Shown here one piece after another: positions 20,528 through 51,700 of a stretch of 64,000 nucleotides of DNA (its first letter is position 1; each line of letters begins with the position of its first letter). The position numbers were made by a program, and so were the translations under genes. The notes below the pieces were generated by a model, which saw nothing but the letters and a program-made list of their open reading frames with translations, did not search any database and was not told the DNA's origin. The DNA is from Candidatus Aldehydirespirator sp. (GTDB lineage: Bacteria > Actinomycetota > Acidimicrobiia > Acidimicrobiales > Aldehydirespiratoraceae), in NCBI GenBank assembly GCA_965205155.1, contig OZ242033.1:2036590-2100589 (forward strand). The letters run 5' to 3'.

Positions 20528-20665
20528 TGGTCTCCTCAAATGTGCAGCAAGGCGATTTCAAATGTGCAGCACCATCTGAGGGTGTTCGTTTGCGGAGGTC
20601 AGGGGATTATGCGAACCCGCCTCCAGTCCCAGCTCCAGTTCAGTCGGCGCCTTCACCCTATCTTG
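20528..20665 (+). repeat. junction element C1: two AAATGTGCAG boxes, a pseudo T-arm and a decayed tRNA-Cys 3' flank
   Basis: Boxes at 20538 and 20560. gaggtcaggggattatgcgaacccgcc-tccagtcc-...-ggcgccttc is collinear with 14004-14042. Confidence 0.75.
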
Positions 20666-20706
20666 GCTTTCTCCCTGGGCTAGGCGAACAGAGTCCGACC
20701 TCGGGC

Positions 20707-21183
20707 CTATTCGAAGACGTCCAGGCGTCCGCTGCCGAGGAGCCGCTTTGCCGCGTCGATCGCGGCTTGTGCGGTGTTGAGGGCTTGCTGGGCGTCGTTC
20801 TCGTCGACTCCGGGGGAGTCTTCGTCGGGATACTCGGTGCGGTTGCGGCGCCGGCGCATGGCGTGCAGGCGGCCGAATACCGCCATTCCGCCTCGATCGT
20901 TGAATTGGGCGCGCACGGCATCGATGACAGCGATGTGGCCCCCTCGGGTGGTGGCGCGCAGCCCTTGTACCGCGAGCAGTGCGGCAGCGGCCTTGCGTGC
21001 GGCGTCGTAGGAAAGCTGGAGCGCGCCTGCCGGGTCGTCTGAGGTGCCCTTTGAGGCGAGCCTGATATGCGCGTCGGCGTCGGCCACCAACCGGCTGGCG
21101 ACCCCGGCCGAGGGGGCCACCTGTTCGAGTTCGCCGTCCGCTATCAATCGTTCGACCTCGGCGTGTCCCCGTTGCCAGCTCAT
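20707..21183 (-). CDS. putative HEPN-like toxin partner of the upstream NTase/HTH protein
   Basis: All-helical 158 aa, 4-nt overlap with the NTase gene, Arg-rich RLHAMRRRRNRTEY segment. Family assignment is tentative. Confidence 0.5.
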   Translation of the reverse strand: MSWQRGHAEVERLIADGELEQVAPSAGVASRLVADADAHIRLASKGTSDDPAGALQLSYDAARKAAAALLAVQGLRATTRGGHIAVIDAVRAQFNDRGGMAVFGRLHAMRRRRNRTEYPDEDSPGVDENDAQQALNTAQAAIDAAKRLLGSGRLDVFE

Positions 21184-21818
21184 GGGGATCTACCACCTTT
21201 GGCTTCAAGCTCAAGGAGTTCTCTTGTTGGTTCGTGTTCATCGTTCGCGAGGACGACGACGAGGGGCCGCGACTTGACTTCCCGGATGAAACTGCTGCGC
21301 TCAGATCTCCACTGGGAGGGCGTGCGGACGGTCGCTTGGACCGGCATCCCGATCCGTTCCTCGACCCGTTGGGCAGCGTCGTCTACGAGATCGCGGTCTG
21401 CGTCTCCGATTACCAGCACGTCGACGTCGTTCGGGGCTCGGCCCGCCTCGCCCAAATAGCGTGCGGCCCAAGAACCGATCAACAGGACCGCTTCAGCCCC
21501 CTGGATGCCGGCGAGTTCTTCGGCAACCACCGTCGGCGGGCCGTATGTGGCGAGAATGATCCGGCGCACCGCGTCGTATAGAGGATGGTCGACCCTGGCA
21601 CGCACTTGCCGCATGGGACCGACCTTCTCGGTGGTGAGGATTCCGGCCTGCTCAGCTCGAAGCACTTCCCGCAGCACCGTCGGCATGCTCGTGCGGGTCG
21701 CGGCGACCAGGTCGGACAAGCTGTGGCTCTTGTCGGGGTCGGCGAGCACGCGCGCCAGGATCCTGCCCTGGGCGTCTGAGCGAAGGATAGGAGCGAGCGG
21801 CGGCGCAGGAACTTTCAT
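21180..21818 (-). CDS. winged-helix plus minimal nucleotidyltransferase (MNT-type) protein, putative antitoxin
   Basis: N-terminal HTH (LSDLVAATRTSMPTVLREV), NTase signature GSWAARY...PNDVDVLVIGD. Confidence 0.7.
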   Translation of the reverse strand: MKVPAPPLAPILRSDAQGRILARVLADPDKSHSLSDLVAATRTSMPTVLREVLRAEQAGILTTEKVGPMRQVRARVDHPLYDAVRRIILATYGPPTVVAEELAGIQGAEAVLLIGSWAARYLGEAGRAPNDVDVLVIGDADRDLVDDAAQRVEERIGMPVQATVRTPSQWRSERSSFIREVKSRPLVVVLANDEHEPTRELLELEAKGGRSP

Positions 21819-21860
21819 AAACCGTATAGAACTATACGCTTTTAGAAAGCAGATGCAACA

Positions 21861-21910
21861 GGGAATTATGCGAAGGCACCTCTAGTAGCTCCTCGAGTTT
21901 CGAATCGCAA
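21861..21910 (+). repeat. partial junction element (gggaattatgcgaaggcacctctag...agtttcgaatc)
   Basis: Matches the ggggattatgcgaaggcgcc...agtttgaacc part of the element at 22.4 kb. Confidence 0.5.
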
Positions 21911-22214
21911 CTACTTTCTCGTCGGGACCCACTTGAAGGTCCGGAGAGCAATAGCGATCGCGGCGATTCCCCAGAAGGTCAACACGAGAGAGGGGCCCAG
22001 AAGTGTGCCGTCTGCCATTGGATCGTAAGCCGATGTGAGGATTCCGACGAGCGCTCGAACGGGGAAGAGGGATACCAGCATCTCCAGCCAACCGGGGATG
22101 CAGCAGGCAGAAGATCTCCCCTCGCTCGATGGAGAACGAGAGTTCTTGCAGCACTGGCTGGGCCCCGAAGGACTTCGACACCCTGTCGACCTTGACCACC
22201 GGAGTCACAACCAC
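21882..22214 (-). pseudogene. remnant of an ABC transporter (ATPase N-terminus fused to permease C-terminal fragment)
   Basis: VKVDRVSKSFGAQPVLQELSFSIERGEIFCLL then nonsense. Another frame reads ...TFWGIAAIAIALRTFKWVPTRK stop. Confidence 0.55.
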
Positions 22215-22321
22215 TCTCCCACCGTGGCCACGAGCGCCCTCGGCACCAGTTCCGACCTCTTCCCCATGCGGCGGTCCAGCCTACGTTACGGCGACGCTCT
22301 GACCTTGATAAACGCGCTTCC

Positions 22322-22461
22322 TGATCTCCTCAAATGTGCAGCATGGCGATTTCAAATGTGCAGCAGCATCCTAGGAGTGCCCGTTTGCCGAGGTCAGGGG
22401 ATTATGCGAAGGCGCCGCCAGTTTGAACCGCCCTGGCTTTCCCGGAGGGTCTTGGTGTGCC
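22322..22461 (+). repeat. junction element C2 (direct repeat of C1)
   Basis: Boxes at 22332 and 22354. About 88 nt nearly identical by eye to 20528-20612, then ttgaaccgccctggctttcccggagggt. Confidence 0.75.
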
Positions 22462-22517
22462 CCGGGCAGTGCGCCTGTCCGGCAGTCCTAGGCCGGCTCC
22501 CTGGTTGCCATCGGGAT

Positions 22518-22544
22518 CGTTTGACATTAGATTAATGTCAAACG
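22518..22544. promoter_or_regulatory. 12-3-12 perfect palindrome, likely operator of the RHH antitoxin operon
   Basis: cgtttgacatta gat taatgtcaaacg, 35 nt upstream of the antitoxin start. Confidence 0.5.
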
Positions 22545-22578
22545 ATTCGATTGACTGCCAGCCGACGAAGGAGTCAGC

Positions 22579-22800
22579 ATGAGCCAGATCACCGCCCGGG
22601 TTCCCGATGAGCTCGTTGAGGCGCTCGATGCGGCCGCTGAGGCTCTGAAGCGCAGCCGGGCCGACGTCATTCGCCACGCCTTGGAACGCTATTTGGAGGA
22701 CTACGACGATCTCGATGTGGCCCTTGAGCGCCTGCGGGACCCAGCTGACCCGGTACTCGACTGGGACGAGGTCCGACAAGAGCTGCTCAACTCGGATTGA
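22579..22800 (+). CDS. ribbon-helix-helix (CopG/RelB-type) antitoxin
   Basis: MSQITARVPDELVEALDAAAEALKRSRADVIRHALERYL. Confidence 0.8.
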   Translation: MSQITARVPDELVEALDAAAEALKRSRADVIRHALERYLEDYDDLDVALERLRDPADPVLDWDEVRQELLNSD

Positions 22801-22847
22801 TCGCCGCGCGGCCCAGAGAACGCGAGATGGCGCAGAAGCCGTAGACG

Positions 22848-23111
22848 ATGGCCGCGTACTCAGTCCGGATCAAGCGCAGCGCCACCCGAGACCTGGCGCA
22901 GATTGCTCGCCAGGATCGCGAGCGCATCGTGTACGCCATCGATCGTCTCGGCGAGCAGCCGCATGCGGGCTACCCGCTGAAGGGAGCCCTGCGGGGCCTT
23001 CGCCGCATACGCGTCGGCGACTACAGGGTCATCTACGAAGTGCTCGACAATGAACTCGTCGTCCTCGTTGTTCGAGCCGCCCACCGCCGAGAGGCCTATC
23101 GCCGCCGCTAG
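22848..23111 (+). CDS. RelE/ParE-family toxin
   Basis: LKGALRGLRRIRVGDYRVIYEVLDNELVVLVVRAAHRREAY. Confidence 0.85.
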   Translation: MAAYSVRIKRSATRDLAQIARQDRERIVYAIDRLGEQPHAGYPLKGALRGLRRIRVGDYRVIYEVLDNELVVLVVRAAHRREAYRRR

Positions 23112-23202
23112 AACGGCAGACCGGTAGGACTCGCCAAGGGCGGCTTGGTCGTTCCAGTGACGCCGCTTTGGTATGGGAATGAGAACGATTATCATTTAGA
23201 TC

Positions 23203-24227
23203 ATGGTTGATGAGCGGGTTCCCGTGACGGTGCTGACGGGCTTTCTCGGTGCGGGCAAGACAACGTTGTTGAATCACATCCTCACCGAGCAGCACGGCAA
23301 GCGGATTGCGGTGATCGAGAACGAGTTCGGCGAGGTTGGCATAGACGATGCCATCGTCCTCGATGCCGAGGAAGAGATCTTTGAGATGAACAACGGTTGC
23401 ATCTGCTGCACCGTTCGAGGCGATCTGATCCGCATTCTCGGCAATCTGATGCGGCGCAAGGACCGGTTCGACCAGATCCTCATCGAGACGACGGGGCTGG
23501 CTGACCCTGCACCGGTGGCTCAGACGTTCTTCGTCGACGATGAGATAGCAGCCCAGCTGCGTCTCGACGCGATCGTCACGGTGGTCGACGCCAAACACCT
23601 GGTTCCACACTTGGACGAGGAGAAGCCCGACGGGGTCGAGAACGAAGCTGTCGAGCAGCTGGCGTTCGCCGATCGGGTCGTGCTCAACAAGATCGACCTC
23701 GCCGACATCAACGAGCTGGACGAGGTGGAGACCCGCATCCGGCAGGTCAACGCACTCGTGCCCATCGTCCGGACCCAGCATGGAAAGGTCGACCTTGATG
23801 CCATCCTCGAGGTCGGCGCGTTCTCGCTCGATCGTGTGTTGGCCGATGATCCCGAGTTCCTCGACCCCGATGCCGAGCATCAGCATGACCTCAGCGTGAC
23901 GTCGGTTGGCATCGAAGCCGATGGCGACCTCGATCTCGACCGGGTGAATGAATGGCTGGTCGATCTCCTGCGCACGAAGGGAACCGACATCTTCCGCTCG
24001 AAGGGCATCCTGTCGATCGCCGGCTGGGATCAGCGGTACGTGTTCCAGGGCGTCCACATGCTGCTTGACTGCGAGGCCCAGGGGGCGTGGGAGGACGGCG
24101 AGGAACGACGCAACCGCCTCGTGTTCATCGGACGCAACCTCGACCGACGGTCACTGTCGGTGCAACCGCATACGGCGGCGTCGGTTGGCACGATGTCGTT
24201 GGACCACGGACCGGCCGTCGACGTCGC
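23203..24227 (+). CDS. CobW/COG0523-family G3E GTPase (putative metallochaperone); reading frame breaks near 24.2 kb
   Basis: [13 protein letters not shown]-loop, [22 protein letters not shown]. The rest of ORF 23203-24618 is Arg/Pro-rich off-frame sequence. Confidence 0.8.
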
Positions 24228-24722
24228 TTCGAATGGAAGGGGTCGCTGCTCTCGCTGGCGATGTCTCCCGATGGAGCATGGGCCTGCGCCGGTGCCCAAG
24301 ACGCGACCGTGCAGCTGTGGCGGCTCTGGAGCGGCCGGGACCTCTCGATGTATGGCTATCCGTCCAAGATCGAGCGACTCGGGTTCCGCCACGACAGCCG
24401 ATGGCTTGCGGTTGCGTGCCTCGACGAGCTCACCGTCTGGGACTTCGGCGGGAAGGGGCCCGCCCGCACCGAGCCGGCAGTTGCCTCCGGTCACGACAAC
24501 CACATCGAGGACCTCGCTTGGGATCCATCCGGCCGGTCGGTCGCCACGGGGGGAGGAGACGGCCGCACCATCGTGTGGGCTGCCCCGACTCGTGCCGGCC
24601 AGGACCTGTCGCCGGTGACTGCACTCGAGTCCGATGCGGCGACCAGTCGACTCCGGTGGGTCAGCGAGGACAGCCTCCTGGTCGGTCGGGCCGACGGATG
24701 TCTGGTAAGACTCGCTCTCTGA
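24228..24722 (+). CDS. WD40-repeat segment (about 4 blades) in a different frame, apparently the displaced C-terminus of the CobW gene
   Basis: [66 protein letters not shown]. Confidence 0.6.
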
Positions 24723-24743
24723 AGAAGCTCTCTGAAGAACAGG

Positions 24744-25379
24744 TCAGAGGAGCCCGGCGAGCCACTCCCGGGCATCGACCATCATCTCGATGGTCTGGCT
24801 GTGAGCCATGTCGTAGGCGTGGTGTCGCAGATTCCACCCGCCATCGCCAAGGGCTGCGATCACCTCTCTGGGCTGCTCTTGGCCGATGAAGGCGTCGCGG
24901 GTTCCCCACTGGAAGAGCGCCGGTCGGCCGCCACCGTTGGACAGGTCGAGGTCGAGTCCTGGTGCGCTTGGAAGGCCGCTGCAGATGGCCCACACACCGG
25001 CGTAGCGGGGCGCCCCAACCCTGCCGGCGAGCGCCAGCGACAGGTAGCCGCCTTGGCTGAACCCGCCCACTATGCACCGCTCGAGGGGCACGCCTGCCTT
25101 TCTGGCCTCGTCCGCGATGAAGGACTCGAGCATCTCGAGCGAGGGCACGAACTGTGAGAAGTCGGATTCGAACGTGTCGAGGTCGATGTACCACCAGCCC
25201 GCGCCGTCGCCATCGGGCATGTCGATCGGTCCCCGCGGCGCGATCGCGCTGAATCGTTCGTCTGGGTCGACCAACGGCACGTACGACGCGAGGTGGTGCT
25301 GCTCGGCGGTGTAGCCGTGCATGAGGAAGAGGAGACGGTCTGCGCCGTCGCGGTCAATCCGGTACTGGGTCAGTGACAT
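24744..25379 (-). CDS. alpha/beta hydrolase, phospholipase/carboxylesterase family
   Basis: LFLMHGY, GGFSQGG nucleophile elbow, C-terminal ...YDMAHS. Confidence 0.8.
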   Translation of the reverse strand: MSLTQYRIDRDGADRLLFLMHGYTAEQHHLASYVPLVDPDERFSAIAPRGPIDMPDGDGAGWWYIDLDTFESDFSQFVPSLEMLESFIADEARKAGVPLERCIVGGFSQGGYLSLALAGRVGAPRYAGVWAICSGLPSAPGLDLDLSNGGGRPALFQWGTRDAFIGQEQPREVIAALGDGGWNLRHHAYDMAHSQTIEMMVDAREWLAGLL

Positions 25380-25656
25380 GGAACGAAACGCTCCTGTGCT
25401 GTTCGTTCGGTGAGCCTATGCGTGAACCGTGAGTGCGGCACGCCCCGACCCATCGTCAATCCGCGCACACCCATACATCGCCTACGGAGATCGCATCTTC
25501 GAGGATTCCCGCTGGAACGACTCTGCCGTCTGCTGACCCCCCGGCTTCGGCTAGCCGGCACTCTCGGGCACGCTGGTGCTTTGGGCGTCTGACATGCGGT
25601 TCTCCCGTCGAGGGGGTCAAGCGGGCACCTGGCAAGTGTATGTACTACCTTTGACC

Positions 25657-28600
25657 ATGGCCGGATGCCGCGTTCAATGGGCCAGACGGTTGGTTGTTTG
25701 GGTCGCTGTTGCGGTGGTGTCAGTGGCGGTGGCAGCCGCGCCGGGCGCGGCCCAGGATGATGCGCCCTATTCGGACGTGGCTGCTGACGCCTACTACGCC
25801 GAGACTGTCAGCAGGCTGTCCGCGGACGGTGTGTTCGAGGGCACAGAGTGCGATGAGGGGTTCTGCCCCGATGAGGCCATAGACCGCGCCACGATGGCGG
25901 TGTGGACCGTGCGTGTCGTCGATGAAGCGGACCCCGCGCCGGTGAGTTCCACACGCTTTGCCGATGTGGACGCGACGCATGCTCAAGCGGCGTTCGTCGA
26001 GCGCCTAGCAGCACTCGGTGTCACCCAAGGATGCGGAGACGGCACCAACTTCTGCCCCGACAGCGCCGTGACCCGCGCCGAGATGGCCGTGTTCCTGTCG
26101 CGGGCCTTCGATCTGGCTGAAGGACCAGATCCCGGCTTCGGCGATGTGCCTGCTGACGCCTGGTACGCGGCCGACGTCGCCAAGCTCGCCGCATCGGGCA
26201 TCACCACCGGATGCGGGGACGGCACCAACTTCTGCCCGGACCAAGACACCACCAGAGCCCAGATGGCCAGCTTCCTGGCCCGCGCGCTGGGACTGGTCGA
26301 GCTGCCTGCATCGGTCCGATTCACAGCCTTGGACACCGGCGAAGCGCATTCGTGCGCGCTACGGACTGACAGCACTGTCGTCTGCTGGGGCGACAATGCA
26401 CACGGGCAGGCTGACGCTCCCGACGGTGCATTCCAGGCGGTTTCCGCTGGCGGAAGTGAATGGGACGGGAGCCATTCGTGCGCGCTGCGGACAGACGGCA
26501 CTGTCGTCTGCTGGGGATCCAACAACGTCGGGCAGAGCGACGCTCCTGGTGGGGAGTTCGTGACGGTCTCGGCCGGCGGCTATCACTCCTGCGGTGTGCG
26601 CGTCGACGCGACGGTCGCCTGCTGGGGCTTGAACACCCGCGGGCGGAGCGACGCTCCCGGTGGGGAGTTCGTGATGGTCTCGGCCGGTGGCGGCCATACG
26701 TGCGGTGTGCGCGTCGACGCGACGGTCGCCTGCTGGGGATGGAGAATTGGCGGGGCGACGGACGCTCCCGGTGGGGAGTTCGTGACGGTCTCGGCCGGCA
26801 GCAGCTCTTACTCGTGCGGTGTGCGCGTCGACGCGACGGTCGCCTGCTGGGGCTCCGACCTCGGGCTGACGGAGGCTCCTGGTGGGCAGTTCGTGGAGGT
26901 CTCGGTCGGCGTCCGCCGTGTGTGCGGTCTGCGAGTCGATGGAAGGGCCGTCTGCTGGCGCCTCCACCCCTGGCAGCAGGCTGTTCCCGACGGGGAGTTC
27001 GTGACGGTCTCCGCCGGGCGACGTCATTCGTGCGGTCTTCGGGTCGAGGGAACGGTGGTCTGCTGGGGCGACCACTCCGAGTACGCCTCGCCGGCTGACG
27101 CGCCTGTCGGGAAGTTCGCTGCTGTGGTGGCCGGTGATCAACATGCGTGCGGCCTGCGGGTCGACAGCAGCGCTGTCTGCTGGGGCAGAAGCCTCTTCGG
27201 GGAGGCGCACGCCTCGCCCGGGAAGTTCAGCGCCGTCTCGGCCGGCGGCTCGCAATCGTGCGGTGTGCGGGTCGATGGCGAGGTCGCCTGCTGGGGCGAA
27301 CGCGCCGAACGGCAGGCCGACGCTACCGGCGGGAAGTTCAGGGCAGTGACGAGCGGCGACAGGTACTCGTGCGGTCTGCGGGTCAACTACACCATTGAGT
27401 GCTGGGGCGTGATCGACGATGCCACCGTCCTGCCGATCCGCGGTCAGTTCGACGAGATCGCTGCGGGCGGCAGGTTTGTGTGCGGGCTGCGTCGTGATCG
27501 CACGATTGCTTGCTGGACGCCGCTGCCCGAGGCGCAGGTCGATCCTCCCGACGGTCGTTTCGACGGGGTGTCTGTCGGTGGAGCGCACGGCTGCGGGCTG
27601 CGCTCGGAGGGCGTGGTCGTCTGCTGGGGCGACGACTCCCATGGTCAGTCCGACGCCCCGGACGGCCGGTTCGTCGAGGTCTCGGCCGGAGGGCTGCATT
27701 CCTGCGGCCTGCGCGCCGATAGGACCGTCGAGTGCTGGGGCGACGACTCTGATGGTCAGTCCGACGCCCCGGACGGCCGGTTCGTCGCGGTCTCGGCCGG
27801 CTCAGACTTCTCGTGCGGAGTGCACGAGTCCGGCGCAATCCGGTGCTGGGGTTCTCATGTAGTCGGTCCGCCGGTCGGGGTGCAAGAAACAGGCGAGCCC
27901 CTCGGGCCCGACCCCCACAGCTGCCGGCCCTTCGCCGATGGGGGCACAGCCAATTGGCGCACAACGACGGGCTTCCCGCCGTCCCCAGAGGTGTCCTCGA
28001 CCACGGGCCGGCTGCGGGTGGCGGTCCTGTTCGTGGACTTCGACGATGCCATAGCAATCAACAGCGCTCAGCAGGAGAGCCTCAAGGGATTGCCCTACAT
28101 GAGGCGGTACCTGGAAGCCTCGAGCTACCGCAGGCTGCGGATCGAGTCCGTGCCGCTGTTGCGGTGGCTGCGGGCCGAGCACGGCTACCAGCACTACTTG
28201 TCGCAGTCGGCGTACGGGCCGGTGGACATCAGGCGCCGCATCGATCGGGAGGTGGTGTGGTTGGCGGATCCCCACTTCGACTTCAGCGGGATCGACGCGG
28301 CGATGATCGTCATGCCCAGCGCGCACTTCAGCGGCGGCAACGCTCGCGGCTACGTCGAGTCCGCGGAAGGACTGGTATCGACGCTGCGGGTCAACACGAT
28401 TCCTGCGGCCGGACACTTGGACGCGGGTTATGTGATGGCCCACGAACTGGCCCACAACCTTGGGTTGGCGGACCTGTACCCCTACAAGGCGCACCCCTAC
28501 ACGAGCATCCGTCGGCCGGCACCTCCTGCCGACGGCAAGTCGTGGCGCTGGGTCGAGCTGGGGCTGATGGGCCTGGCCTCATGGGTGCCGACGGACCGGG

Positions 28601-29043
28601 TCGCCGCCGGCGAGATCGACGCGGACGAGATGCTGGCGTGGAGCCGCTGGCAACTCGGCTGGCTCGGCGAGGATCGGATCCGCTGCATCCGCGAACCGGC
28701 CGAGACGGTGGAGCTGAGCCCGGTGGCCGATCCTGGCAACGGCGTCGCCATGGCTGCCGTGCCGCTGTCGCAAGACGAGGTGATCGTCGTCGAGAGCCGG
28801 CGCAGGATCGGATACGACAAGCGGGCGGCGTGGGGCGAAGGCGCCGTGGTGGTGTACACCGTCGACGCTTGGGTCCCCAGCGGGGAGCTGCCCATCAGGC
28901 TGGCCGGCGACGCCGGGAGGGGGTACACCCGCGAGTCGCCCATTCTCGCCGAGGGCGAGAGCGTGACCGTGCGGGGCTACACGATCACCGTCACAGCCGA
29001 CGACGGCGACACCCACACCGTCCACATCACCAGAACCGACTAG
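25657..29043 (+). CDS. secreted multidomain protein: 3 SLH-like repeats, 14 RCC1-type blades and an M6 (InhA)-like zinc metalloprotease domain
   Basis: Signal MAGCRVQWARRLVVWVAVAVVSVAVAAAPGAAQ. Three F.DV...G(V/I)T.GCGDGTNFCPD..TRA.MA repeats. 14 x ..HSCG(L/V)R.D.TV.CWG.N..GQ.DAP. VMAHELAHNLGLADLY. Confidence 0.85.
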   Translation: MAGCRVQWARRLVVWVAVAVVSVAVAAAPGAAQDDAPYSDVAADAYYAETVSRLSADGVFEGTECDEGFCPDEAIDRATMAVWTVRVVDEADPAPVSSTRFADVDATHAQAAFVERLAALGVTQGCGDGTNFCPDSAVTRAEMAVFLSRAFDLAEGPDPGFGDVPADAWYAADVAKLAASGITTGCGDGTNFCPDQDTTRAQMASFLARALGLVELPASVRFTALDTGEAHSCALRTDSTVVCWGDNAHGQADAPDGAFQAVSAGGSEWDGSHSCALRTDGTVVCWGSNNVGQSDAPGGEFVTVSAGGYHSCGVRVDATVACWGLNTRGRSDAPGGEFVMVSAGGGHTCGVRVDATVACWGWRIGGATDAPGGEFVTVSAGSSSYSCGVRVDATVACWGSDLGLTEAPGGQFVEVSVGVRRVCGLRVDGRAVCWRLHPWQQAVPDGEFVTVSAGRRHSCGLRVEGTVVCWGDHSEYASPADAPVGKFAAVVAGDQHACGLRVDSSAVCWGRSLFGEAHASPGKFSAVSAGGSQSCGVRVDGEVACWGERAERQADATGGKFRAVTSGDRYSCGLRVNYTIECWGVIDDATVLPIRGQFDEIAAGGRFVCGLRRDRTIACWTPLPEAQVDPPDGRFDGVSVGGAHGCGLRSEGVVVCWGDDSHGQSDAPDGRFVEVSAGGLHSCGLRADRTVECWGDDSDGQSDAPDGRFVAVSAGSDFSCGVHESGAIRCWGSHVVGPPVGVQETGEPLGPDPHSCRPFADGGTANWRTTTGFPPSPEVSSTTGRLRVAVLFVDFDDAIAINSAQQESLKGLPYMRRYLEASSYRRLRIESVPLLRWLRAEHGYQHYLSQSAYGPVDIRRRIDREVVWLADPHFDFSGIDAAMIVMPSAHFSGGNARGYVESAEGLVSTLRVNTIPAAGHLDAGYVMAHELAHNLGLADLYPYKAHPYTSIRRPAPPADGKSWRWVELGLMGLASWVPTDRVAAGEIDADEMLAWSRWQLGWLGEDRIRCIREPAETVELSPVADPGNGVAMAAVPLSQDEVIVVESRRRIGYDKRAAWGEGAVVVYTVDAWVPSGELPIRLAGDAGRGYTRESPILAEGESVTVRGYTITVTADDGDTHTVHITRTD

Positions 29044-29102
29044 CGGCGGCTAGCAGACGGCCCTGGTCGTTCCAGCGGACGTCCTCGAAGATGCGATCGG
29101 GA

Positions 29103-30275
29103 TCAGGCCGAGGAGGCCTTCCGTCGTAACGGTTGCCAGGTGCGGTAGGTCGCGCAGCGCCATGCCCATTCGAAGGGTCCGTACCGGAACCGGGCCAGCC
29201 ACCACGTCGACCACCAGAGTTGCAGCCCCCACACGCCGAGGATCCAGGCGGCGATCATGGTGCGGCTGAGGTCGACGCCGTCCCACCACAGCGTGAGCAT
29301 GGTGACGCCGAGGATGGTCTGGGTGAGGTAGTTGGTGAGCGCCATCCTGCCGACGCTGCGGAAGCGCTCGATGTGGTGGCTGCTGCGCCGGTTCCACATG
29401 ATGATCAGCGCCATGTAGCCGAGGGCCATGGGGATCGTCCCCAAGCCGGTGAGGATGTGTCCCGTGAGCGCGTAGTCCGGTGACCAGTCGCCCGCGATCC
29501 GGAACACGAACTCGGCGGCGGTGACCGCCGTTCCGGCGGCGAGACCCCAGCGGGCCATGCGCCGGTAGTACGTGTCGTCTCGCTGTCCCTGCACGATGCC
29601 GAGCCGGAACAGAGCGACGCCGATGAGCATCAGCCCCAGGGCTCGCCCGATGACGTCCAGGAAGAACCAGCCCGAGATCGCGCCCGACTTGCCGACCGCG
29701 TCGGCGAACCAGTAGTCGCCGAGTTCGGCTCCGTCGGCGCCCACGGTGCTCTGGAACAGGGGGGCCGTGAGGCCGCCCGCCAGGGCCAGCACCACCCCCG
29801 AGCCGATCAGCAGGCCCGCCGGGAGCTTGCGGACCAGCAGCACGATCGGCGCGCACAGGGCGTAGAGGACCAGGACGTCGCCCTCCCACGCGGCGGTGTG
29901 GGCGAGGCCGACAGCGAACAGCAGCCCGAAGCGCCACAGGCTCAACCACACGACTCGGCGACCCTTGGCCTTGGCCCGGTCGGCGAAGACGACGACGCCC
30001 ACGCCGAACAGCAGCGAGAACAACGCCATCATCTTCTGGTTGACGAAGACCATGGTCGCCACGCCGACGACCCAGTCGAAGGGTTGACGGATCCCGTCGG
30101 CGGAGACGTTGAAGTAGGCGGCCGGCGCCAGGCCGAAGGCCAGCGCGTTCATGGGCAGGATGCCGAGCACGGCCACACCCCGGACGGCGTCCAGCGAGGA
30201 GATCCGCTCGGCCGCCGAGACCGGTCCCGATGCCCGCCTGCGCTCGGATCGTGGGGTGGGGGACGGCGTCACCAC
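29103..30275 (-). CDS. DUF418 (YeiB-like) polytopic membrane protein
   Basis: RISSLDAVRGVAVLGILPMN, MALFSLLFGVG, C-terminal FRYGPFEWAWR. Confidence 0.8.
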   Translation of the reverse strand: MVTPSPTPRSERRRASGPVSAAERISSLDAVRGVAVLGILPMNALAFGLAPAAYFNVSADGIRQPFDWVVGVATMVFVNQKMMALFSLLFGVGVVVFADRAKAKGRRVVWLSLWRFGLLFAVGLAHTAAWEGDVLVLYALCAPIVLLVRKLPAGLLIGSGVVLALAGGLTAPLFQSTVGADGAELGDYWFADAVGKSGAISGWFFLDVIGRALGLMLIGVALFRLGIVQGQRDDTYYRRMARWGLAAGTAVTAAEFVFRIAGDWSPDYALTGHILTGLGTIPMALGYMALIIMWNRRSSHHIERFRSVGRMALTNYLTQTILGVTMLTLWWDGVDLSRTMIAAWILGVWGLQLWWSTWWLARFRYGPFEWAWRCATYRTWQPLRRKASSA

Positions 30276-30283
30276 CGGTCACC

Positions 30284-30355
30284 CGTCCCGTCGGGGAGGG
30301 CACGGCTCGTCCCGTCGGGGAGGGAACGGCCCGTCCCGTCGGGGAGGGCACGGCT
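30284..30355. repeat. tandem repeat, 3 x 24 bp (cgtcccgtcggggagggcacggct)
   Basis: Three adjacent near-identical units directly upstream of the DUF418 start codon. Confidence 0.9.
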
Positions 30356-30384
30356 CGTCTTGCACGGCGCTGCGGTGAACCACC

Positions 30385-30904: not shown

Positions 30905-30968
30905 ACACGTAGGCGAAGGAACACGTAGGCGAAGGGACACGTAGGCGAAGGGACACGCAGGCGAAGGG
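30905..30968. repeat. tandem repeat, 4 x 16 bp (acacgtaggcgaaggg)
   Basis: Four adjacent units with 1-2 substitutions, immediately 3' of the serpin stop. Confidence 0.9.
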
Positions 30969-30976
30969 CGCGGCCA

Positions 30977-33029: not shown

Positions 33030-33107
33030 GGGCCGTTAGCTCAGCCTGGTTAGAGCGCCTGCTCGACACGCAGGAGGTCAGAGGTTCAAATCCCCTACGG
33101 CCCACCA
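33030..33107 (+). tRNA. tRNA-Val (anticodon GAC) with unusual anticodon loop UCGACAC, CCA encoded
   Basis: Acceptor GGGCCGT/ACGGCCC, D arm GCTCAGCCTGGTTAGAGC, anticodon stem CCTGC/GCAGG, T arm AGAGG-TTCAAAT-CCCCT. Confidence 0.85.
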
Positions 33108-33108
33108 C

Positions 33109-33175
33109 GGGGGGTTCGCGACATGGAGCAGTTCGCGTTCGCGAGTTTGTTGAGAGATAAGCCCTCTTGGTGCCT
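33109..33175 (+). repeat. tRNA-Val downstream flank, repeated at 50211-50275
   Basis: ggggggttcgcgacatggagcagttcgcgttcgcgagtttgttgagagat versus ggggcgttcgcgagatggagcggtccgcgttcgcgagtttgttgggagat. Confidence 0.8.
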
Positions 33176-34056: not shown

Positions 34057-34225
34057 CGCACCACTCTGACCTCGTTAACTGAGCGTTGTCGATGGGCGTT
34101 GTAAATCAGCGTTCTGACGCCAGCGGACGGCCAAGAAAGTCAAGAAACCACCCTTCCGGATGTGAAGGTCTTTCCGCCAGTTACTAGAACGCCGAAGTCA
34201 AAGATGGTTGCCCCCGGGTCGAGGA
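34057..34225 (+). repeat. degenerate junction element V1
   Basis: cgcaccactctgacctcg...ggatgtgaaggtc...ctagaacgccgaagtcaaagatggttgccccc is collinear with the elements at 50.1 and 51.6 kb. Confidence 0.55.
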
Positions 34226-36938: not shown

Positions 36939-36956
36939 GCCCATGAGGAGGGGACA

Positions 36957-37592: not shown

Positions 37593-37607
37593 CGCATCCT
37601 CACGCTC

Positions 37608-39773: not shown

Positions 39774-39885
39774 TCTGTCGGAACCCAAATCCGTTTCGCC
39801 ATACGGGAAATCCGTTTCAGGCCTCCATCAGCGACCCTTCAAGATCGTTGAGATTTCAACGATCTCGGGACTCACGCACCAGCCC
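39774..39885 (+). repeat. about 112-bp repeat with an internal hairpin (copy B)
   Basis: ctgtcggaac...agatcgttga gatt tcaacgatct...cgcaccagcccc, between the divergent starts at 39740 and 40079. Confidence 0.8.
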
Positions 39886-40078
39886 CCGCATCCGATCATC
39901 CCAACCAGCCTCGGCCCAATTCGCTGACGTCCCCTCTCAGGTCCCGGCAGCCAGCGTAATGACCTTCTCGGCTCGCATGCCGCTGACGACTCGACAGGCC
40001 GTGCGCGTCCCGACAGGGGCAAAACCCGTTTCGCACTCGGTCTACGGTTCTGCGACGCCCAACCGCCGAGGTGAGACA

Positions 40079-42621: not shown

Positions 42622-42715
42622 GCGGGGTGGCCGCAACCAGGCCTGGGCTCGGCGCTCCAGTGCCTGAACGGCGAAACCTTCACATCCTGTAGGGAGCTTC
42701 TTCACATTGCACAGT
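42622..42715 (-). repeat. junction element V2 (inverted orientation)
   Basis: Reverse complement reads aatgtgaagaagctccctacaggatgtgaaggtttcgcc...cctggttgcggccacccc. Boxes 22 nt apart. Confidence 0.65.
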
Positions 42716-42798
42716 CAGCGTCAGCGTCCTGGCCTCAGTGGGGGCCACAGTCAAGCGTTGCATAGCCGCAGGTCTTCCCGACTCGGCGACCGCCGGTT

Positions 42799-46510: not shown

Positions 46511-47156
46511 GATGCAGGCCTGGGCCGGTGTGGGGTGGGTGTCGCGCGAGTCGGCATTCAAGGCCGCTCCTCTCGTGTCGTAGCAAGCTGAAGTGTCCGA
46601 CCCATCCGCGGCTCGGCGCCGGAGCGCTGGTAGCGCTCGCAACGAGGCACTGGATGCAGGGCCTGGCCTGTGGCTGTTCTCGGCATAGGTGGCATCTCTG
46701 GAGCGGGTCTGGGCATGCTTGCCAGAGAACGCCTTGCAACAGGACCGGAGGGAGCCTCGACTGGGCCCACCGCGGCGGGCCCAGTCGCTCAACGGGATTG
46801 CCGGATACCGATGTTCTCGGACGGCGGGCACCGTAGCTGCGGCCGTCACAGTGGGCAAGCCCCGAGACTGCTTGCTGCAGCACGACCATGCCAGCAGGTG
46901 CAGCAGCCGCACGCGTCGGACCCCACCGCGCGAAGCCCATCGTCGATGGAATGGCGTCAGATGGGTTGGAGTGAGCTGTCCAGGTTGAGCAGAGCGTTGA
47001 GCTCGGGATCCACGATGTGCAGCGCGCCGTCGACATGGCGTTTGGAGGTTGGATACGAGCCGTGCGACGGTGTTGCCGCATGCCCCTTCGTGGACCTGAA
47101 CCCGCAGAAACTCCGACTGGGCTTCGACCCTCAAGCTCGCACCGACATGCAGGTCG

Positions 47157-47260
47157 ACCGCGTTCGCGAATCACCCGATTCGCGTTCGGGAATTCGCCAA
47201 ATCGCGTTCCGACTACGACTCGGCGCAAGCTGCTGACCTAGGGGTTCGTGATTTCGCGCC
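47157..47260 (+). repeat. partial junction element V3 (gttcgcga-type flank repeats plus tgacctagg box)
   Basis: gaccgcgttcgcgaatc...gattcgcgttcgggaattc...cgcaagctgctgacctagggg. Confidence 0.5.
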
Positions 47261-47368
47261 ACGCCCCACAGGCCGGGCAGAATCTCTGGACAGGTCCAGC
47301 AGCCGTCCCAAGGAATCCCAGCCCCAGTCCACAGGCAGGGCCCTCTGGCGTCACGCCCCGTCGATAGG

Positions 47369-48118: not shown

Positions 48119-48183
48119 ACACCTCTCAGCCGCAACCGGCCTCTACGGGTTGGAGCTGACCCGGTTTCGTTGACACCGGGTGG

Positions 48184-49062
48184 TTATGCGGCGTGGGCCG
48201 CGGGTTGGTGGTGTTGTTCGTAGCGGATGGGTGACAGGTTGTCGAGTCGGGTGTGGCGGCGGTGGTGGTTGTACCAGTCGATGAAGCTCATGATTTGGGT
48301 GCGGGCGTCGGTGTGGCTGCGGAACCGGGTCTTGTCGAGCAGCTCGCACTCGAGGGTCGCGAAGAACGATTCGGCCATGCTGTTGTCAAAGCAGTCGCCT
48401 CTGGTGCCCATCGACAGCACGATCCCGGCGCGGCGGCAGCGGCGCCCGAACGCGATGCTGCCGTATTGGGATCCCTGGTCTGAGTGGTGGATGAGGCCTC
48501 GGGGCGGTCGGCGGGTCTGGATGGCCATGTCGATGGCGTCAACGATCAACTCTGTGCGCATGTGGGTGGCGTAGGACCAGCCCACGATGCGGCGGCTGAA
48601 CACGTCGAGCACGGTGGCGAGGTACCCGAACCCGGCCCAGGTCGGCACGTAGGTGATGTCGGCCACCCACAACTCGTTGGGGCCCGCCGCGGTGAACTGG
48701 CGGTTGACCCGGTCCGGTGCCGGCGACTGCGAGTCGTCGCGGCGTGTGGTCCAGGCCTTCTTGCGGCGGTGACAGCCGGCGATGCCGGCCTGGCGCATCA
48801 GGCGGGCGACCCGTTTTCGGCCGCAGCGAATGCCGTAGTCATCGGCGAGCTCGGCACAGATCCTCGGGGCCCCGTAGTTGTGCCGCGAGTCGGCATGGAT
48901 CTTCTTGATGACCGCGGTGTAGGCCGCGTCGGTGATGCGACGTTGAGAGGGCGGCCGCTTGCGCCACGCGTAGAAGCCCTGGCGGGTGACGCCGAGGCGC
49001 TCGCACATGAACTTGACCGGGAAGTTGGCCTTCTCCGCCTCGATGAAGCTGAACACCCTCAC
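48184..49062 (-). CDS. IS3-family transposase OrfB (DDE)
   Basis: WVADITYV, IHHSDQGSQYGS, DCFDNSMAESFFATLECEL, YNHHRRHTRL. Confidence 0.85.
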   Translation of the reverse strand: MRVFSFIEAEKANFPVKFMCERLGVTRQGFYAWRKRPPSQRRITDAAYTAVIKKIHADSRHNYGAPRICAELADDYGIRCGRKRVARLMRQAGIAGCHRRKKAWTTRRDDSQSPAPDRVNRQFTAAGPNELWVADITYVPTWAGFGYLATVLDVFSRRIVGWSYATHMRTELIVDAIDMAIQTRRPPRGLIHHSDQGSQYGSIAFGRRCRRAGIVLSMGTRGDCFDNSMAESFFATLECELLDKTRFRSHTDARTQIMSFIDWYNHHRRHTRLDNLSPIRYEQHHQPAAHAA

Positions 49063-49361
49063 CGCGTCGGGGCGTTCTTCGCCGCGAAGAAGGCCGCGGC
49101 TGCTTTTTCCAGCAGGTCCTTCTCCATGCGCAGCACCCGGTTCTCGGCCCGCAGCCGGCGAAGCTCGGCCTTCTCATCGGTCGTGAGCCCGCCCCGCTGG
49201 CCGTCATCGATCTCGGCCTGGACGACCCAGTTCATGATCGACTGCGCCGACGGCTCGAACTCGCGGGCAAGCTCCGACGGCGACCGGCCCTCCTCACGGA
49301 CCAGCCGCACCAGCTCGGCCTTGTACTCAGTCGGATACGGCGGACGAGTGCGTCCTCCCAT
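49059..49361 (-). CDS. IS3-family transposase OrfA
   Basis: ATG 49361. PPYPTEYKAELVRLVREEGRSPSELAREF, LRRLRAENRVLRMEKDLLEKAAAFF. Confidence 0.85.
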   Translation of the reverse strand: MGGRTRPPYPTEYKAELVRLVREEGRSPSELAREFEPSAQSIMNWVVQAEIDDGQRGGLTTDEKAELRRLRAENRVLRMEKDLLEKAAAAFFAAKNAPTR

Positions 49362-49631
49362 AGTTGACTCCCCTCTGGACCCCCTCAAGGATCCCAGGAT
49401 CAGGGTGTCAACCAAACCGGGTCAGCTCCAAACTGCCCTTGAAGCAAGTCTGGACGCTGGTAGAGAACTGAGCATGGCGGGCGGGAGTCGGCTCGCCCAG
49501 CCCAGACCTTCCCGCAAAGCAAACGCTGTGCTCCTCGTCCCGAGAGATCACCGAACCGTCCGACTGGACCTGCCAGAATTCGCCTCCGTGAGGCATCCCG
49601 TGCGCGAGCGGTTCCCCTCGGGCGGTGACGC

Positions 49632-50027
49632 GTGACGACGGTGCTGGTATCAGCCGCGGTGAGCGCGGTCGTGGCTTTGCTCGTGGTGCTACTGGCCCAG
49701 CACTTGTCGGACCGGTCCGAACGACGCCGCCTGCGTCGCGACGTGCTGCGCAAGCTCGCAGGACACCGCTACCTGATCGCCGGAGACGTCAGCCCTGTGC
49801 CCAACGAATTCTGGGTGGCACTGAACGAGGTCGGCATCGCGTATCTGGACGACGATGAGGTCATGGAGGCACTGCGTGTGTTCAGGACACGAGTCAACCG
49901 CGGACAGGTGGCCGAGGACTTCGTTCCGCTCATTGAGGCGATGGCGAGAGCGGCCAGGCTGCCCGCTGAGCGCCTCGATTCTGAGATGCTGACGACTCCG
50001 TTCGCTCCGCAGAATCCTAAGAGCTAG
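49632..50027 (+). CDS. hypothetical N-terminally anchored membrane protein
   Basis: TM VLVSAAVSAVVALLVVLLA then a soluble helical domain. Confidence 0.5.
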   Translation: MTTVLVSAAVSAVVALLVVLLAQHLSDRSERRRLRRDVLRKLAGHRYLIAGDVSPVPNEFWVALNEVGIAYLDDDEVMEALRVFRTRVNRGQVAEDFVPLIEAMARAARLPAERLDSEMLTTPFAPQNPKS

Positions 50028-50078
50028 CAGTGAACCGGACGGGCTTCGCCGTCCAGCACGCACTGCCTGGGAGTCGCC

Positions 50079-50280
50079 GCGCACTACCTTTGACCTAGGC
50101 TTTTGCGGCCAAATGTGGAGTCCCCTACCAACCAAATGTGGAGACCTCTTCTTCGGAGTGCGCTAGAAGGTAGAGGTCAAGGCAGGTCGCGAACACCCTA
50201 CAACAACTATGGGGCGTTCGCGAGATGGAGCGGTCCGCGTTCGCGAGTTTGTTGGGAGATGGGCATTCTTGGCCGGGAAG
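50079..50280 (+). repeat. junction element V4: tgacctagg box, two AAATGTGGAG boxes, a decayed tRNA-Val 3' half and a copy of the tRNA-Val downstream flank
   Basis: Boxes at 50111 and 50134. gaggtcaaggcaggtcgcgaacaccctacaacaactatgggg aligns with tRNA-Val gaggtcagaggttcaaatcccctacggcccaccacgggg, then the flank repeat. Confidence 0.8.
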
Positions 50281-50445
50281 ATGCGAAGAGCCCGCGGGCG
50301 GCTGCCCGGCGTCACTTTCCTTCTTGGTGCGCGAGTGGCGGATGCGACTCTTGGCGCCCCGGAGCTCGGCCGGCACGAGCCCGTCCGCAGGCACGGTCCA
50401 GAGCTCTGGCAGCCGTTCTGGCAACGGGTGCCGAGGGTCGAGCCC

Positions 50446-50991
50446 CTATGCGCTGGTAGCGGGTTGCGAGGATGCCTGGTCCGAGGTGTCAACCGCGATG
50501 TGCTGCATGAAGACACGGTATGTCTCTGCTGATTCTTGAAGGGTGTTCCCCAAGTCCGCTAGCAGGCGCAGCGCCTCGCGCTGCTCTTCAGTGAACTTCC
50601 GGCTGGCTGGGTGTATCGCTGTGCGGAACATCGCGATCCAGGCGTCAGGCCTCTCCTCGTGGTCTTGGTGGGCTGTGCGGGTGTGGGTGGTCAGCGGGAT
50701 GCGCTCGTTGTCGAATACGGCGGTCACCTCTAGGTGGCCGCCCATGCCTTCGACCGCCATCCGCAGAGTCGACACCAGGTTGTCGGCGGCGGTCTCCATT
50801 GCCGACACGGACGCCTGGGCGCGGTCAAGGCGTCGTGCCAGCTCGGTCTGGGTGAGATTGCGGCGCTGGCGCAGTTCCTTGAGGGTGTAGGCCACGGTCT
50901 CGGCGCGGGCTTCCTCCTTGAGGGCCTCGACCCGGGCGCGCTGCTCAGGGGTCAACTCGCCGACGAGTTCATCGAAGTCGTAGTAGGTCAT
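50446..50991 (-). CDS. XRE-family HTH antitoxin (HigA-like) with a C-terminal extension
   Basis: LKELRQRRNLTQTELARRLDRAQASVSAMETAADN. Start ATG 50991. Confidence 0.75.
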   Translation of the reverse strand: MTYYDFDELVGELTPEQRARVEALKEEARAETVAYTLKELRQRRNLTQTELARRLDRAQASVSAMETAADNLVSTLRMAVEGMGGHLEVTAVFDNERIPLTTHTRTAHQDHEERPDAWIAMFRTAIHPASRKFTEEQREALRLLADLGNTLQESAETYRVFMQHIAVDTSDQASSQPATSA

Positions 50992-51038
50992 GTGGGGTGG
51001 TCTCCTGTGGTGGGGGCGGTGCATCGTGGGGCTGCTGG

Positions 51039-51426
51039 CTACGGGTCTGGGAACTCGCCTTGGGATCGGAGATCGGCCAGGTACTGCTCGTACAGGCGCT
51101 CCGCCTCCGGGATGGCGCTCCGGTACCAGTCGTTCCATTGGCGGGCTTTGCTGCCTCCGAACAACAGGATCGCCTGCCGGCGCGGGTCGAACATGAACAG
51201 GATGCGCAGGTTCCTGCCCGCGCCGCGGGGTCTGAGTTCTTTCATGTTCTGATGTTGGGAGCTGTGGATCCGTTCGACGATGGGACGCCCCTACGTCGGG
51301 CCGCCCTCGCGCAGCAGCTCTAGGGCAGCGATGAACGAGAGCCGCTCTTCTTCGTTGAGCGACTCCTGCCAGGACTTCACCTGCGCTGTCGCCTTGATCT
51401 CCCACGCCACCAACATAGTATAGGGC
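51039..51426 (-). pseudogene. HigB/Gp49-like (RelE superfamily) toxin interrupted by an in-frame TAG at 51291-51293
   Basis: ...LELLREGGPT*GRPIVERIHSSQHQNMKELRPRGAGRNLRILFMFDPRRQAILLFGGSKA... Both halves are in the same frame. Confidence 0.7.
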
Positions 51427-51570
51427 TGACTCGATATAGGTGCTACTTGTGTCAGATGGCCGGTCGCGGATCCGTGGTGCTGTACGCCGCGTCTGGCACA
51501 CAGTAAAGGCGCACTCGCCGTCGAGCCACACACGGCCGTAGCGCGGCACCCTGAACGGAGGGCCCATCCT

Positions 51571-51700
51571 CGCACCGCCTCTGACCTAGGGTTTTCTCCG
51601 CGAAATGTGAAGAAGGCACCTCTCAGGATGTGAAGGTTTCGCAGCGAGGTGCTAGAACCCCGAGGTCAGAGGTGGTCGCGAACACCCCACTGACTGACCG
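51571..51700 (+). repeat. junction element V5
   Basis: cgcaccgcctctgacctagg, AAATGTGAAG at 51603, GGATGTGAAG at 51626. gaggtcagaggt is identical to 12 nt of tRNA-Val, then ggtcgcgaacacccc. Confidence 0.75.

Follow-up and report, generated by a model that had tools for sequence, protein, structure and literature searches.

The attachment (att) sites of lambda-like tyrosine integrases combine a short core at a tRNA gene, in which inverted half-sites flank an overlap, with paired direct arm repeats that are unlike the core in sequence and lie tens of bp away, and they give rise to hybrid junctions. The tRNA-targeting integrases of the pSAM2-type actinomycete integrative and conjugative elements (AICEs) have att sites of the same sort. 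For lambda-like actinobacteriophage integrases at tRNA genes, paired putative arm-type sites flank a short 10-bp common core, as in the case of the tRNA-Lys site attB-4 (PMC10865867). Integrase-less tandem arrays are known as cis-mobilizable elements (CIMEs), which have been reviewed along with the accretion in tandem of integrative elements that share an att site (PMC5704250), and they also form the ssrA islands of Dehalococcoides (PMC3146451). Here, a 64-kb stretch of high G+C content (about 0.69) from the Acidimicrobiales member Candidatus Aldehydirespirator sp. (contig OZ242033.1), hereafter the window, was found to carry a conserved module of about 125 nt, containing two AAATGTGNAG boxes, that recurs downstream of a tRNA-Cys and a tRNA-Val gene.

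The module shares with the lambda-like att sites a short core at a tRNA gene, paired direct repeats as putative arm sites and hybrid junctions, and in some copies also inverted half-sites around a short overlap, but it has no adjacent integrase gene, its boxes lie within a long conserved inverted repeat, its Cys-type half-sites are 18-25 nt apart, and a single scaffold is directed to two tRNA targets by exchange of the 3' segment. Its crossover would fall at the extreme 3' end of the tRNA gene, and the tRNA would therefore need no repair, unlike at the lambda-like sites. The arrays of the window resemble CIMEs and ssrA islands in being tandem integrase-less segments beside one RNA gene, with att-like junctions and with a content and order that vary between relatives. 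They differ in having no known autonomous partner and in a junction module which, at about 125 nt plus a trailer, is far larger than a simple core repeat. On balance, and with modest confidence, the modules are probably att-type sites of tandemly accreted integrative cassettes specific for tRNA 3' ends, with the boxes as arm-type protein-binding sites.

Boxes, scaffold and distribution of the module

The exact box AAATGTGNAG is present seven times in the window, where 0.08 matches are expected, and none of 100 shuffles reached this number. All seven are located in four junction elements, paired 22-23 bp apart, and none lies outside the elements; when one mismatch was permitted, the sole extra match was CAATGTGAAG at 42700-42709 on the minus strand. 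The composite pattern, in which two boxes separated by N12-13 are followed after N24-32 by GAGGTCA, has four matches in the window against none expected. The N base of the box is the same in both boxes of each copy, being C in the Cys type and A or G in the Val type. The paired boxes at this fixed spacing had been proposed in an earlier, sequence-only reading of this DNA, and each pair listed there was seen again on reading the sequence. The letters given for the pairs were correct except that copies A, B and C (Table 1) have GGATGTGAAG as their second box; at 51626 the sequence is not AAATGTGAAG.

Alignments showed the same order in both types: CTCTGACCT comes before box 1, 12-13 nt separate box 1 from box 2, and some 27 nt further on lies GAGGTCAGRG, followed after 5-7 nt by GCGAA and then by a type-specific end. 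The right arm of the module reads AGGTCAGAG. The Val-type end GAACACCCCAC, with the general form ...GCGAACACCC(C/T)AC, mimics the tRNA 3' end CTACGGCCCAC, and the Cys-type end GAAGGCGCCTCCAG, with the general form ...GCGAAGGCGCCTCCAG and the variant GCGAACCCGCCTCCAG, mimics the tRNA 3' end CCCGGCGCTCCAG. The alignment bears out the earlier proposals that the upstream part is shared and the downstream part is tRNA-specific, and that the elements are one family with two variants. In each variant, the common scaffold is fused to an 8-11-nt mimic of the tRNA-Val or the tRNA-Cys 3' end. The proposed upstream box, tgacctagg, was confirmed at 50090, 51581 and 47233, and is represented by CTCTGACCT at 34064 and 22297. 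The distance of 12-20 nt given for it does not hold in copy C, where about 70 nt separate it from box 1, and copy E (20538) is devoid of this left arm. A short form of the junction, composed of CTGACCTAGG, about 18 nt, CACCCCAC and a trailer, is found at window 47233, at L066 13182 and on the minus strand of L002 at 1470 (L numbers designate the other loci examined). Many junctions are decayed or short forms, and many copies persist as right halves only.

The module is present in about 10 other Acidimicrobiales assemblies. Among species-representative genomes, the composite pattern was found at five loci, all from metagenome-assembled genomes (MAGs) of Acidimicrobiia/Acidimicrobiales, including Candidatus Aldehydirespirator, and further copies came from loci fetched via neighbouring proteins (L065, L066, L090, L091 and L093). 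A metagenome scan gave one plausible diverged relative (L011) and six chance matches. In an all-against-all BLAST of the bearing loci, the module (125-190 nt, 78-93% identity) was often the sole sequence common to unrelated flanks. Wherever tRNA genes were in view, the modules lay downstream of tRNA-Cys or tRNA-Val in the same orientation, and in the sequence examined they were confined to tRNA-linked variable regions, with no spread to unrelated loci. In the window, copies E and F are arrayed behind tRNA-Cys, and copies C and B, the short form and copies D and A behind tRNA-Val; all are co-oriented apart from copy B. None of the resources searched contains a description of the module.

Scans of viral contigs with four patterns gave candidates that were rejected, L082-L089 being chance hairpins and L018 and L043 carrying 22-bp iterons in unrelated contexts. 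In these last two high-GC viral contigs (L043 3380-3560; L018 minus strand, about 6280-6420), the iterons contain AAATGTGCAG or AAATGTGGAG (CAACCTTCAAATGTGCAGGTTG; GGGAAATGTGGAGGGGCTTC). They look like replication-origin iterons, and their resemblance to the boxes may be due to chance.

Cassette boundaries and the core palindrome

Homology between the window and its close relative L066 breaks at window 33106 (L066 10859), which is the tRNA-Val 3' end, and at window 51693 (L066 14711), three bases past the CCCCAC of copy A. With L004, it breaks at window 22424 (L004 6307), three bases past the CCAG of copy F. The breakpoints are thus exactly the tRNA 3' end and the module 3' edge, which the sequence-only reading had not noticed. 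Its view of the elements as junctions agrees with their position at cassette or island boundaries downstream of tRNA-Cys and tRNA-Val, both in the window and in the relatives. A 1.5-kb cassette encoding helix-turn-helix (HTH) and Gp49 proteins is, together with copy A, 93.6% identical in L066. In the window, 17 kb separate this cassette from tRNA-Val; in L066 the distance is 2.4 kb, and there the cassette is followed by the trailer which in the window directly follows the tRNA. Moreover, the 6.6 kb past copy F (window 22425-29043) are replaced by about 0.64 kb in L004, copy C is the positional equivalent of L093 11172-11303, and the cassette order differs between the window and L066, L004 and L093. 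The cargo, which comprises toxin-antitoxin, GNAT, HEPN, AbiTii, PIN, Hypoth_Ymh, RCC1-repeat and insertion sequence (IS) genes, is typical of variable islands.

A different role considered for the boxes is that of operators, or of a promoter element, in a dispersed regulatory unit that governs nearby cargo, for example toxin-antitoxin operons. Some copies adjoin divergent genes, the Gp49-like toxin gene starts beside the left arm of copy A, and direct repeats two helical turns apart are typical of operators too. However, the neighbouring genes differ in identity and orientation at every copy, homologous Gp49/HTH operons exist elsewhere without the module, and no sigma-70-like promoter or terminator-like site was detected around copies D and A (49900-51900). 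A regulatory unit would also not explain why the boxes are linked to a tRNA 3'-end mimic and to the trailer, and such a role is most improbable. That the Gp49/HTH cassette always travels with the module was ruled out by homologues in L070-L081 that lack it. An exact-protein look-up of the ParE gene beside copy F returned no record.

The sequence-only reading had described the segment after GAGGTCA as a pseudo T-arm. Rather than a decayed tRNA arm, this segment is better explained as a core-type half-site: GCGAA, the supposed T-loop, forms the left half of a core of the recombinase type, and the right half, overlooked in that reading, is found in the conserved trailer behind the tRNA. In copy A of L066, the core is TCGCGAACACCC|CACTGAA|GGGTGTTCGCGG, with 11 of 12 positions complementary around a 7-nt spacer. 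The tRNA-Val core of the window has ...CTACGGCC on the left, the spacer CACCACG and GGGGGTTCGCG on the right; the palindrome is weaker in the short forms and tRNA-Val flanks than in copy A of L066. In the Cys type, an exact reverse complement of the module half-site GCGAAGGCGCC is located in the trailer, 15 nt after tRNA-Cys (GGCGCCTTCGC). Partner sites also share their overlap. TCCAG is common to tRNA-Cys and all Cys-type modules, and in the Val type CAC[TC]GA[AG] follows CCC at tRNA-Val of L063-L065, in copy A of L066 and in the short forms of L066 and L002. The trailers hold a second direct-repeat pair (GTTNGCGAG or TTCGCC; TTCGCS), 23 bp apart, at 33114/33137, 50216/50239 and 14039/14062. 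Together with the boxes, these repeats at box-like spacing would fit a two-armed attP.

The sequence (T)CCAG(T), which corresponds to the tRNA-Cys discriminator base plus CCA, is present in 2-4 tandem copies directly after tRNA-Cys and the Cys-type modules. It was seen at window 14017-14033, at L003 5612-5640 and in the tRNA-Cys flanks of L004, L063 and L064, with a copy number that varies by genome. At some Val junctions, a ACAACAAC run is similar in role. Both kinds of repeat could be recombination scars or products of slippage.

Taken together, the tRNA-end mimicry, the palindromic core with a shared overlap, the two arms, each with direct repeats paired at two helical turns, the exact breakpoints and the tandem, reshuffled, integrase-less cassettes fit conservative site-specific recombination. 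In such a scheme, a module would close each of the serial cassettes or islands inserted exactly at the tRNA-Cys and tRNA-Val 3' ends. The 3' part of the module would form, with the trailer or the next cassette, a tyrosine-recombinase-type core made of two inverted half-sites of about 11-12 bp and a short overlap that includes the last tRNA bases. The boxes, 40-65 bp from this core, are predicted to be P-arm sites, most likely for the arm-binding domain of the recombinase or for an accessory or directionality factor. The simplest system of this kind would be a tyrosine integrase of the lambda-like sort that uses arm-type sites, and the window copies would represent attR-like or attP-like junctions of elements that accreted in tandem and are no longer autonomous. 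The arrays themselves would be integrase-less remnants, as in CIME-like tandem accretion, and any movement would need a recombinase encoded elsewhere. The class of this recombinase, the binding of a protein to the boxes and any current activity are predictions drawn from the DNA sequence.

Several observations weigh against att-type sites of this kind. Pfam detected no tyrosine or serine recombinase (Phage_integrase, Resolvase), either among the called open reading frames (ORFs) of the window or among the genes and ORFs examined at related loci, and PHROGs revealed no recombinase among ten unannotated proteins. Viral contigs, GenBank phages and plasmids yielded no free attP, intact element or BLAST match. 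The half-sites of copy D, 13 nt apart, and those of the Cys type are too distant from each other for a canonical 6-8-bp overlap; in the Cys type, (T)CCAG(T) repeats that vary in number occupy the 18-25 nt in between. A hairpin-forming inverted repeat with a G.T bias and swapped arms, described below, is not needed by a plain double-stranded arm-site model. Furthermore, the identity of the box N base within each copy could reflect gene conversion and not protein specificity.

The unannotated proteins, examined with PHROGs, permissive Pfam settings and a PDB sequence search, gave a weak DDE transposase as the sole signal. Members of this DDE-like family are encoded just downstream of tRNA-Val in four relatives (L063 11059-13916, L093 11520-12755, L091 11292-13396 and L090 14181-15065); they are 28-81% identical and have a weak C-terminal match to DDE_Tnp_1_6 (E 1.5e-4 to 7e-4). 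Their recurrence next to tRNA-Val is compatible with modules and trailers being the ends of non-autonomous DDE transposons, either Tn7-like, Mu-like or resembling miniature inverted-repeat transposable elements (MITEs), that home to tRNA 3' ends; the 22-23-bp repeats would then be transposase sites and (T)CCAG the 5-bp target duplications. Terminal inverted repeats of the TG...CA form may be seen in the right end ...CGCGAACACCCCA and the left end TGAAGGGTGTTCGCG..., and at both ends there are two sites spaced by 23 bp (GCTAGAAC and TCGCGAAC at one, GTTCGCGAG twice at the other). The pentamer repeats at the Cys site are ambiguous as target duplications. On the other hand, an 8-11-nt mimicry of the element's own target tRNA is expected of conservative site-specific recombination and not of DDE transposition, the AAATGTGNAG boxes are restricted to one end, and no matching terminal inverted repeats bound the DDE-like genes. 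The inverted repeat is also internal to the conserved unit, and no dispersal to unrelated loci was seen in the sequence examined, so that DDE or MITE ends are very unlikely. An IS110-family transposase gene (DEDD_Tnp_IS110 and Transposase_20) was noted at L091 1658-2878, 3.3 kb from a Cys-type module and not adjacent to it, and was not seen near other copies. A likeness of the Cys type to XerCD/dif sites (TTCGCATAAT, minus strand) was rejected on inspection, only one arm being represented and the Val type lacking it.

The inverted repeat around the boxes

The CTCTGACCT box upstream is the reverse complement of the GAGGTCAGAG 'core', and the two form the arms of a 9-18-bp stem that encloses both boxes, a relationship which had escaped the sequence-only reading. 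The arms of copy A read TCGCACCGCCTCTGACCT and AGGTCAGAGGTGGTCGCGA. The Cys-type stem extends inward, where CTCTGACCTYGRYARACG pairs with CGTTTGYCGAGGTCAGRG, and both inner and outer extensions differ between subfamilies. The hairpin is present in most complete copies. In nine complete copies, 81.6% of the cells are paired, against at most 43% when the partners were slid. The covariation score of the stem, 0.194 versus 0.117±0.018, was reached by none of 500 shuffles, and seven pairs are changed on both sides. The sample comprised only about 12 related sequences, and the pairing and covariation figures overstate independence because these come from two related subfamilies. Copy D has a compensatory arm change (TTGACCT/AGGTCAA), and in two copies the arms are swapped with pairing kept (AGGTCAG...CTGACCT at L093 16614; GTCGGG...CCTGAC at L002 1470). 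The sequence-only reading had named a transcribed RNA with covarying structure as an outcome that would speak against recombinase sites, and an inverted repeat with compensatory changes around the boxes is part of that picture. Its interpretation is, as a whole, partly supported.

On the plus strand, the stem mismatches amount to 23 G.T against 10 A.C cells, corresponding to about ten versus two or three independent events. These cells were obtained by anchored gapless counting, a 12-sequence MAFFT alignment having misaligned the left arm between subfamilies. The bias is suggestive, not decisive. Single-sequence fold z-scores were -4.7 for copy A, -3.4 for the L003 copy and -3.2 for the L002 copy; those of the other copies (-0.1 to -1.4) were no better than shuffles. 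RNAalifold gave no consensus structure for the interior between boxes and core, and the closing stem emerged only once the upstream box was included.

Recombination at double-stranded att sites leaves both the hairpin and the long, variable Cys spacer unexplained, and two readings based on folding were kept for this reason. The first is that the site is folded single-stranded DNA, a hairpin substrate of the attC or HUH kind (IS200/IS605, IS91 or Helitron-type, inserting 3' of a 4-5-nt target), with the boxes as contacts inside the hairpin. The conserved stem with its covariation beyond 500 shuffles, the compensatory change in copy D, the swapped arms that still pair and the plus-strand G.T bias are all consistent with it. 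Moreover, cassettes end 12-25 nt 3' of the hairpin foot at the pentamer that also serves as target (CCCAC or TCCAG), and toxin-antitoxin, GNAT and defence genes are cargo as in chromosomal integrons. Like the attC sites of integrons and of integron-integrase-less attC clusters (CALIN), most complete copies of the module have a foldable imperfect inverted repeat at the distal cassette end, and integrase-less arrays with toxin-antitoxin, acetyltransferase and unknown cargo exist in both systems. Unlike attC, it has no R'' (RYYYAAC) or R' (GTTRRRY) consensus, its arms being CTCTGACCT and AGGTCAGAG; its breakpoints are outside the stem, 12-25 nt 3' of it, whereas the attC crossover is in R'. Its interior boxes are conserved, a tRNA 3' end takes the place of attI as the anchor of its array, and many cassettes are large and multi-gene, with irregular size and mixed orientation.

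HUH transposons (IS200/IS605, IS91, Helitrons) have a subterminal hairpin 10-25 nt inside the 3' terminus, insert directly 3' of a short specific sequence and show strand-specific G.T tolerance. The module is similar in its hairpin near the 3' terminus, its insertion 3' of a short sequence and its strand-biased G.T tolerance, but has the hairpin at one end only and combines it with a duplex-type palindromic core and target mimicry. Pfam revealed no IntI, Y1/Y2 transposase or Rep domain in the window or at the loci examined. A double-stranded site agrees better with the direct repeats, which are strongly conserved, and with the duplex-type core palindrome, and the G.T bias stems from few independent events. 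A folded single-stranded site is accordingly unlikely, if worth keeping in view.

The second folding-based reading is a structured small-RNA gene, with a long closing stem, internal boxes and a 3' tail like the target tRNA, whose product might regulate or guide recombination or mimic the tRNA end. The evidence for the stem applies here as well, as do the fold z-scores down to -4.7; a scaffold with a variable 3' segment recalls guide RNAs, and the folding strand is the tRNA sense strand. However, only the three tRNAs reached the gathering score of Rfam 15 in the window, nothing relevant was matched at E<=10 over 50000-51800, and the surroundings of copies D and A have no promoter- or terminator-like site. 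In addition, RNAalifold found no interior consensus, the z-scores of the remaining copies are low in magnitude, the stem extensions differ by subfamily, and the many right-half-only copies are better suited to a DNA site. Such an RNA gene is quite improbable. A T-box-like reading of codon and anticodon was rejected on inspection: UGCAG of the Cys boxes could pair with the anticodon loop of tRNA-Cys, but the Val boxes do not fit GAC.

A more speculative extension, which is doubtful at best, is a tRNA-anchored, integron-like cassette platform in the Acidimicrobiales. A recombinase encoded elsewhere would capture and reshuffle cassettes of toxin-antitoxin, defence and other genes exactly at the tRNA-Cys and tRNA-Val 3' ends, and would read a folded DNA or transcript site composed of a constant scaffold (the stem and both boxes) and an exchangeable 3' segment. 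Because this segment mimics the target tRNA end, the platform could be retargeted by swapping about 10 nt.

Other features of the islands and implications

Table 1. Positions of tRNA genes, trailers and box modules in the 64-kb window
Feature	Position	Strand	Description
tRNA-Gly gene	12560		Found with tRNA-Cys (13942) and tRNA-Val (33030)
tRNA-Cys(GCA) gene	13942-14019	+	3' end GGCGC-TCCAG, insertion point of the Cys-type array (attL-like); ARAGORN, Rfam, flank alignment
Cys trailer	14017-14068	+	(T)CCAG(T) repeats, then GGCGCCTTCGC 14034-14044; second TTCGCC 23 nt on (14062)
Copy E, Cys-type without left arm	20527-20656	+	GTGCAG-type boxes 20538-20547 and 20560-20569 (spacing 22); right arm 20595-20605; half-site GCGAACCCGCC 20611-20621; TCCAG repeats; trailer half-site GGCGCCTTCAC 20646-20656
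Copy F, complete Cys-type	22297-22424	+	Left arm 22297-22305; boxes (GTGCAG) 22332-22341 and 22354-22363 (spacing 22); right arm 22390-22400; half-site GCGAAGGCGCC 22406-22416; core GCCAG 22417-22421
tRNA-Val(GAC) gene	33030-33107	+	GAGGTCAGAGGT (variable loop and 5' T-stem strand) equals the module right arm; 3' end CCCAC within the putative overlap
Val trailer	33103-33170	+	Putative overlap CACCACG; right half-site GGGGGTTCGCG 33110-33120; GTTCGCGA at 33114 and 33137 (23-bp spacing)
Copy C, decayed Val-type	34064-34211	+	Left arm 34064-34072; degenerate box 1 AAAGTCAAG 34136; box 2 GGATGTGAAG 34158-34167; right arm GAAGTCAAAG 34194-34203
Copy B, decayed Val-type, inverted	42623-42711	-	Boxes CAATGTGAAG 42700-42709 and GGATGTGAAG 42678-42687 (spacing 22)
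Short-form junction	47150-47269	+	TTCGCG-rich trailer-like stretch; CTGACCTAGG 47233-47242; about 21 nt; CCCCAC 47264-47269; no boxes
Copy D, Val-type with trailer (attP-like P-O-P' junction)	50088-50272	+	Left arm CTTTGACCT 50088-50096; boxes (GTGGAG) 50111-50120 and 50134-50143 (spacing 23); right arm GAGGTCAAGG 50173-50182; half-site TCGCGAACACCC 50187-50198; 13-nt spacer; GGGCGTTCGCG 50212-50222; GTTCGCGA at 50216 and 50239
Copy A, Val-type	51578-51694	+	Left arm CCTCTGACCT 51578-51587 (stem extends upstream to TCGCACCG); boxes 51603-51612 and 51626-51635 (spacing 23); right arm 51662-51672; half-site TCGCGAACACCC 51676-51687; overlap-like CACTGAC 51688-51694

The first cassette after tRNA-Cys (14001-18000) has a G+C content of 0.55-0.59, against about 0.70, and encodes a 687-aa protein without a Pfam or PHROGs match; this fits a recent foreign origin. 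An IS3-family insertion at 19254-20383 (rve, HTH_Tnp_1) splits a metallophosphoesterase gene (18666-19115) just upstream of the truncated copy E. The sequence upstream of copy E has been replaced, and an IS3-type transposase gene (19313-20383) lies immediately before it. A second IS3-family insertion (48150-49431; rve, HTH_Tnp_1) has inverted repeats of 28 nt, with 96% complementarity, at its ends (48150-48177 / 49404-49431).

A sequence of 33-59 nt is inverted on both sides (25483-25541 and 29045-29103) of the gene for the 1163-aa RCC1-repeat protein (25555-29043). L004, L067 and L068 have a single copy of it, beside the conserved gene at 29103, which suggests an insertion or inversion separate from the box modules. 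Downstream of tRNA-Val, the island contains a large inverted repeat (36729-37047 / 37502-37817) with arms of 226 and 100 nt that are 73-81% complementary, and a 97-nt direct repeat (37196-37292 / 39790-39886) with a hairpin (CAAGATCGTTG...CAACGATCTTG). Short tandem repeats are located at 11913-12077, 30282-30359, 30905-30968, 53637-53906 and 38819-38961 (units of 15, 24, 16, 30 and 6-18 nt, respectively). Most of them are apparently inside genes and would give repetitive, low-complexity protein segments.

If the modules are att-type sites of tRNA-specific integrative cassettes, they would represent a previously undescribed attachment-site family and a clean natural case in which an exchange of about 10 nt directs the same recombination-site scaffold to either of two tRNA genes. 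A conserved hairpin around the arm boxes, with arms swapped in some copies, is unusual for lambda-type sites and may point to a single-strand or RNA step, which, if true, would have broader relevance to recombinase mechanisms and tools. As a practical marker, the module can be used to delimit cassettes in Acidimicrobiales MAGs. For this poorly studied actinobacterial order, the proposed site family would also explain how defence and toxin-antitoxin islands gather beside the tRNA-Gly/Cys/Val cluster.

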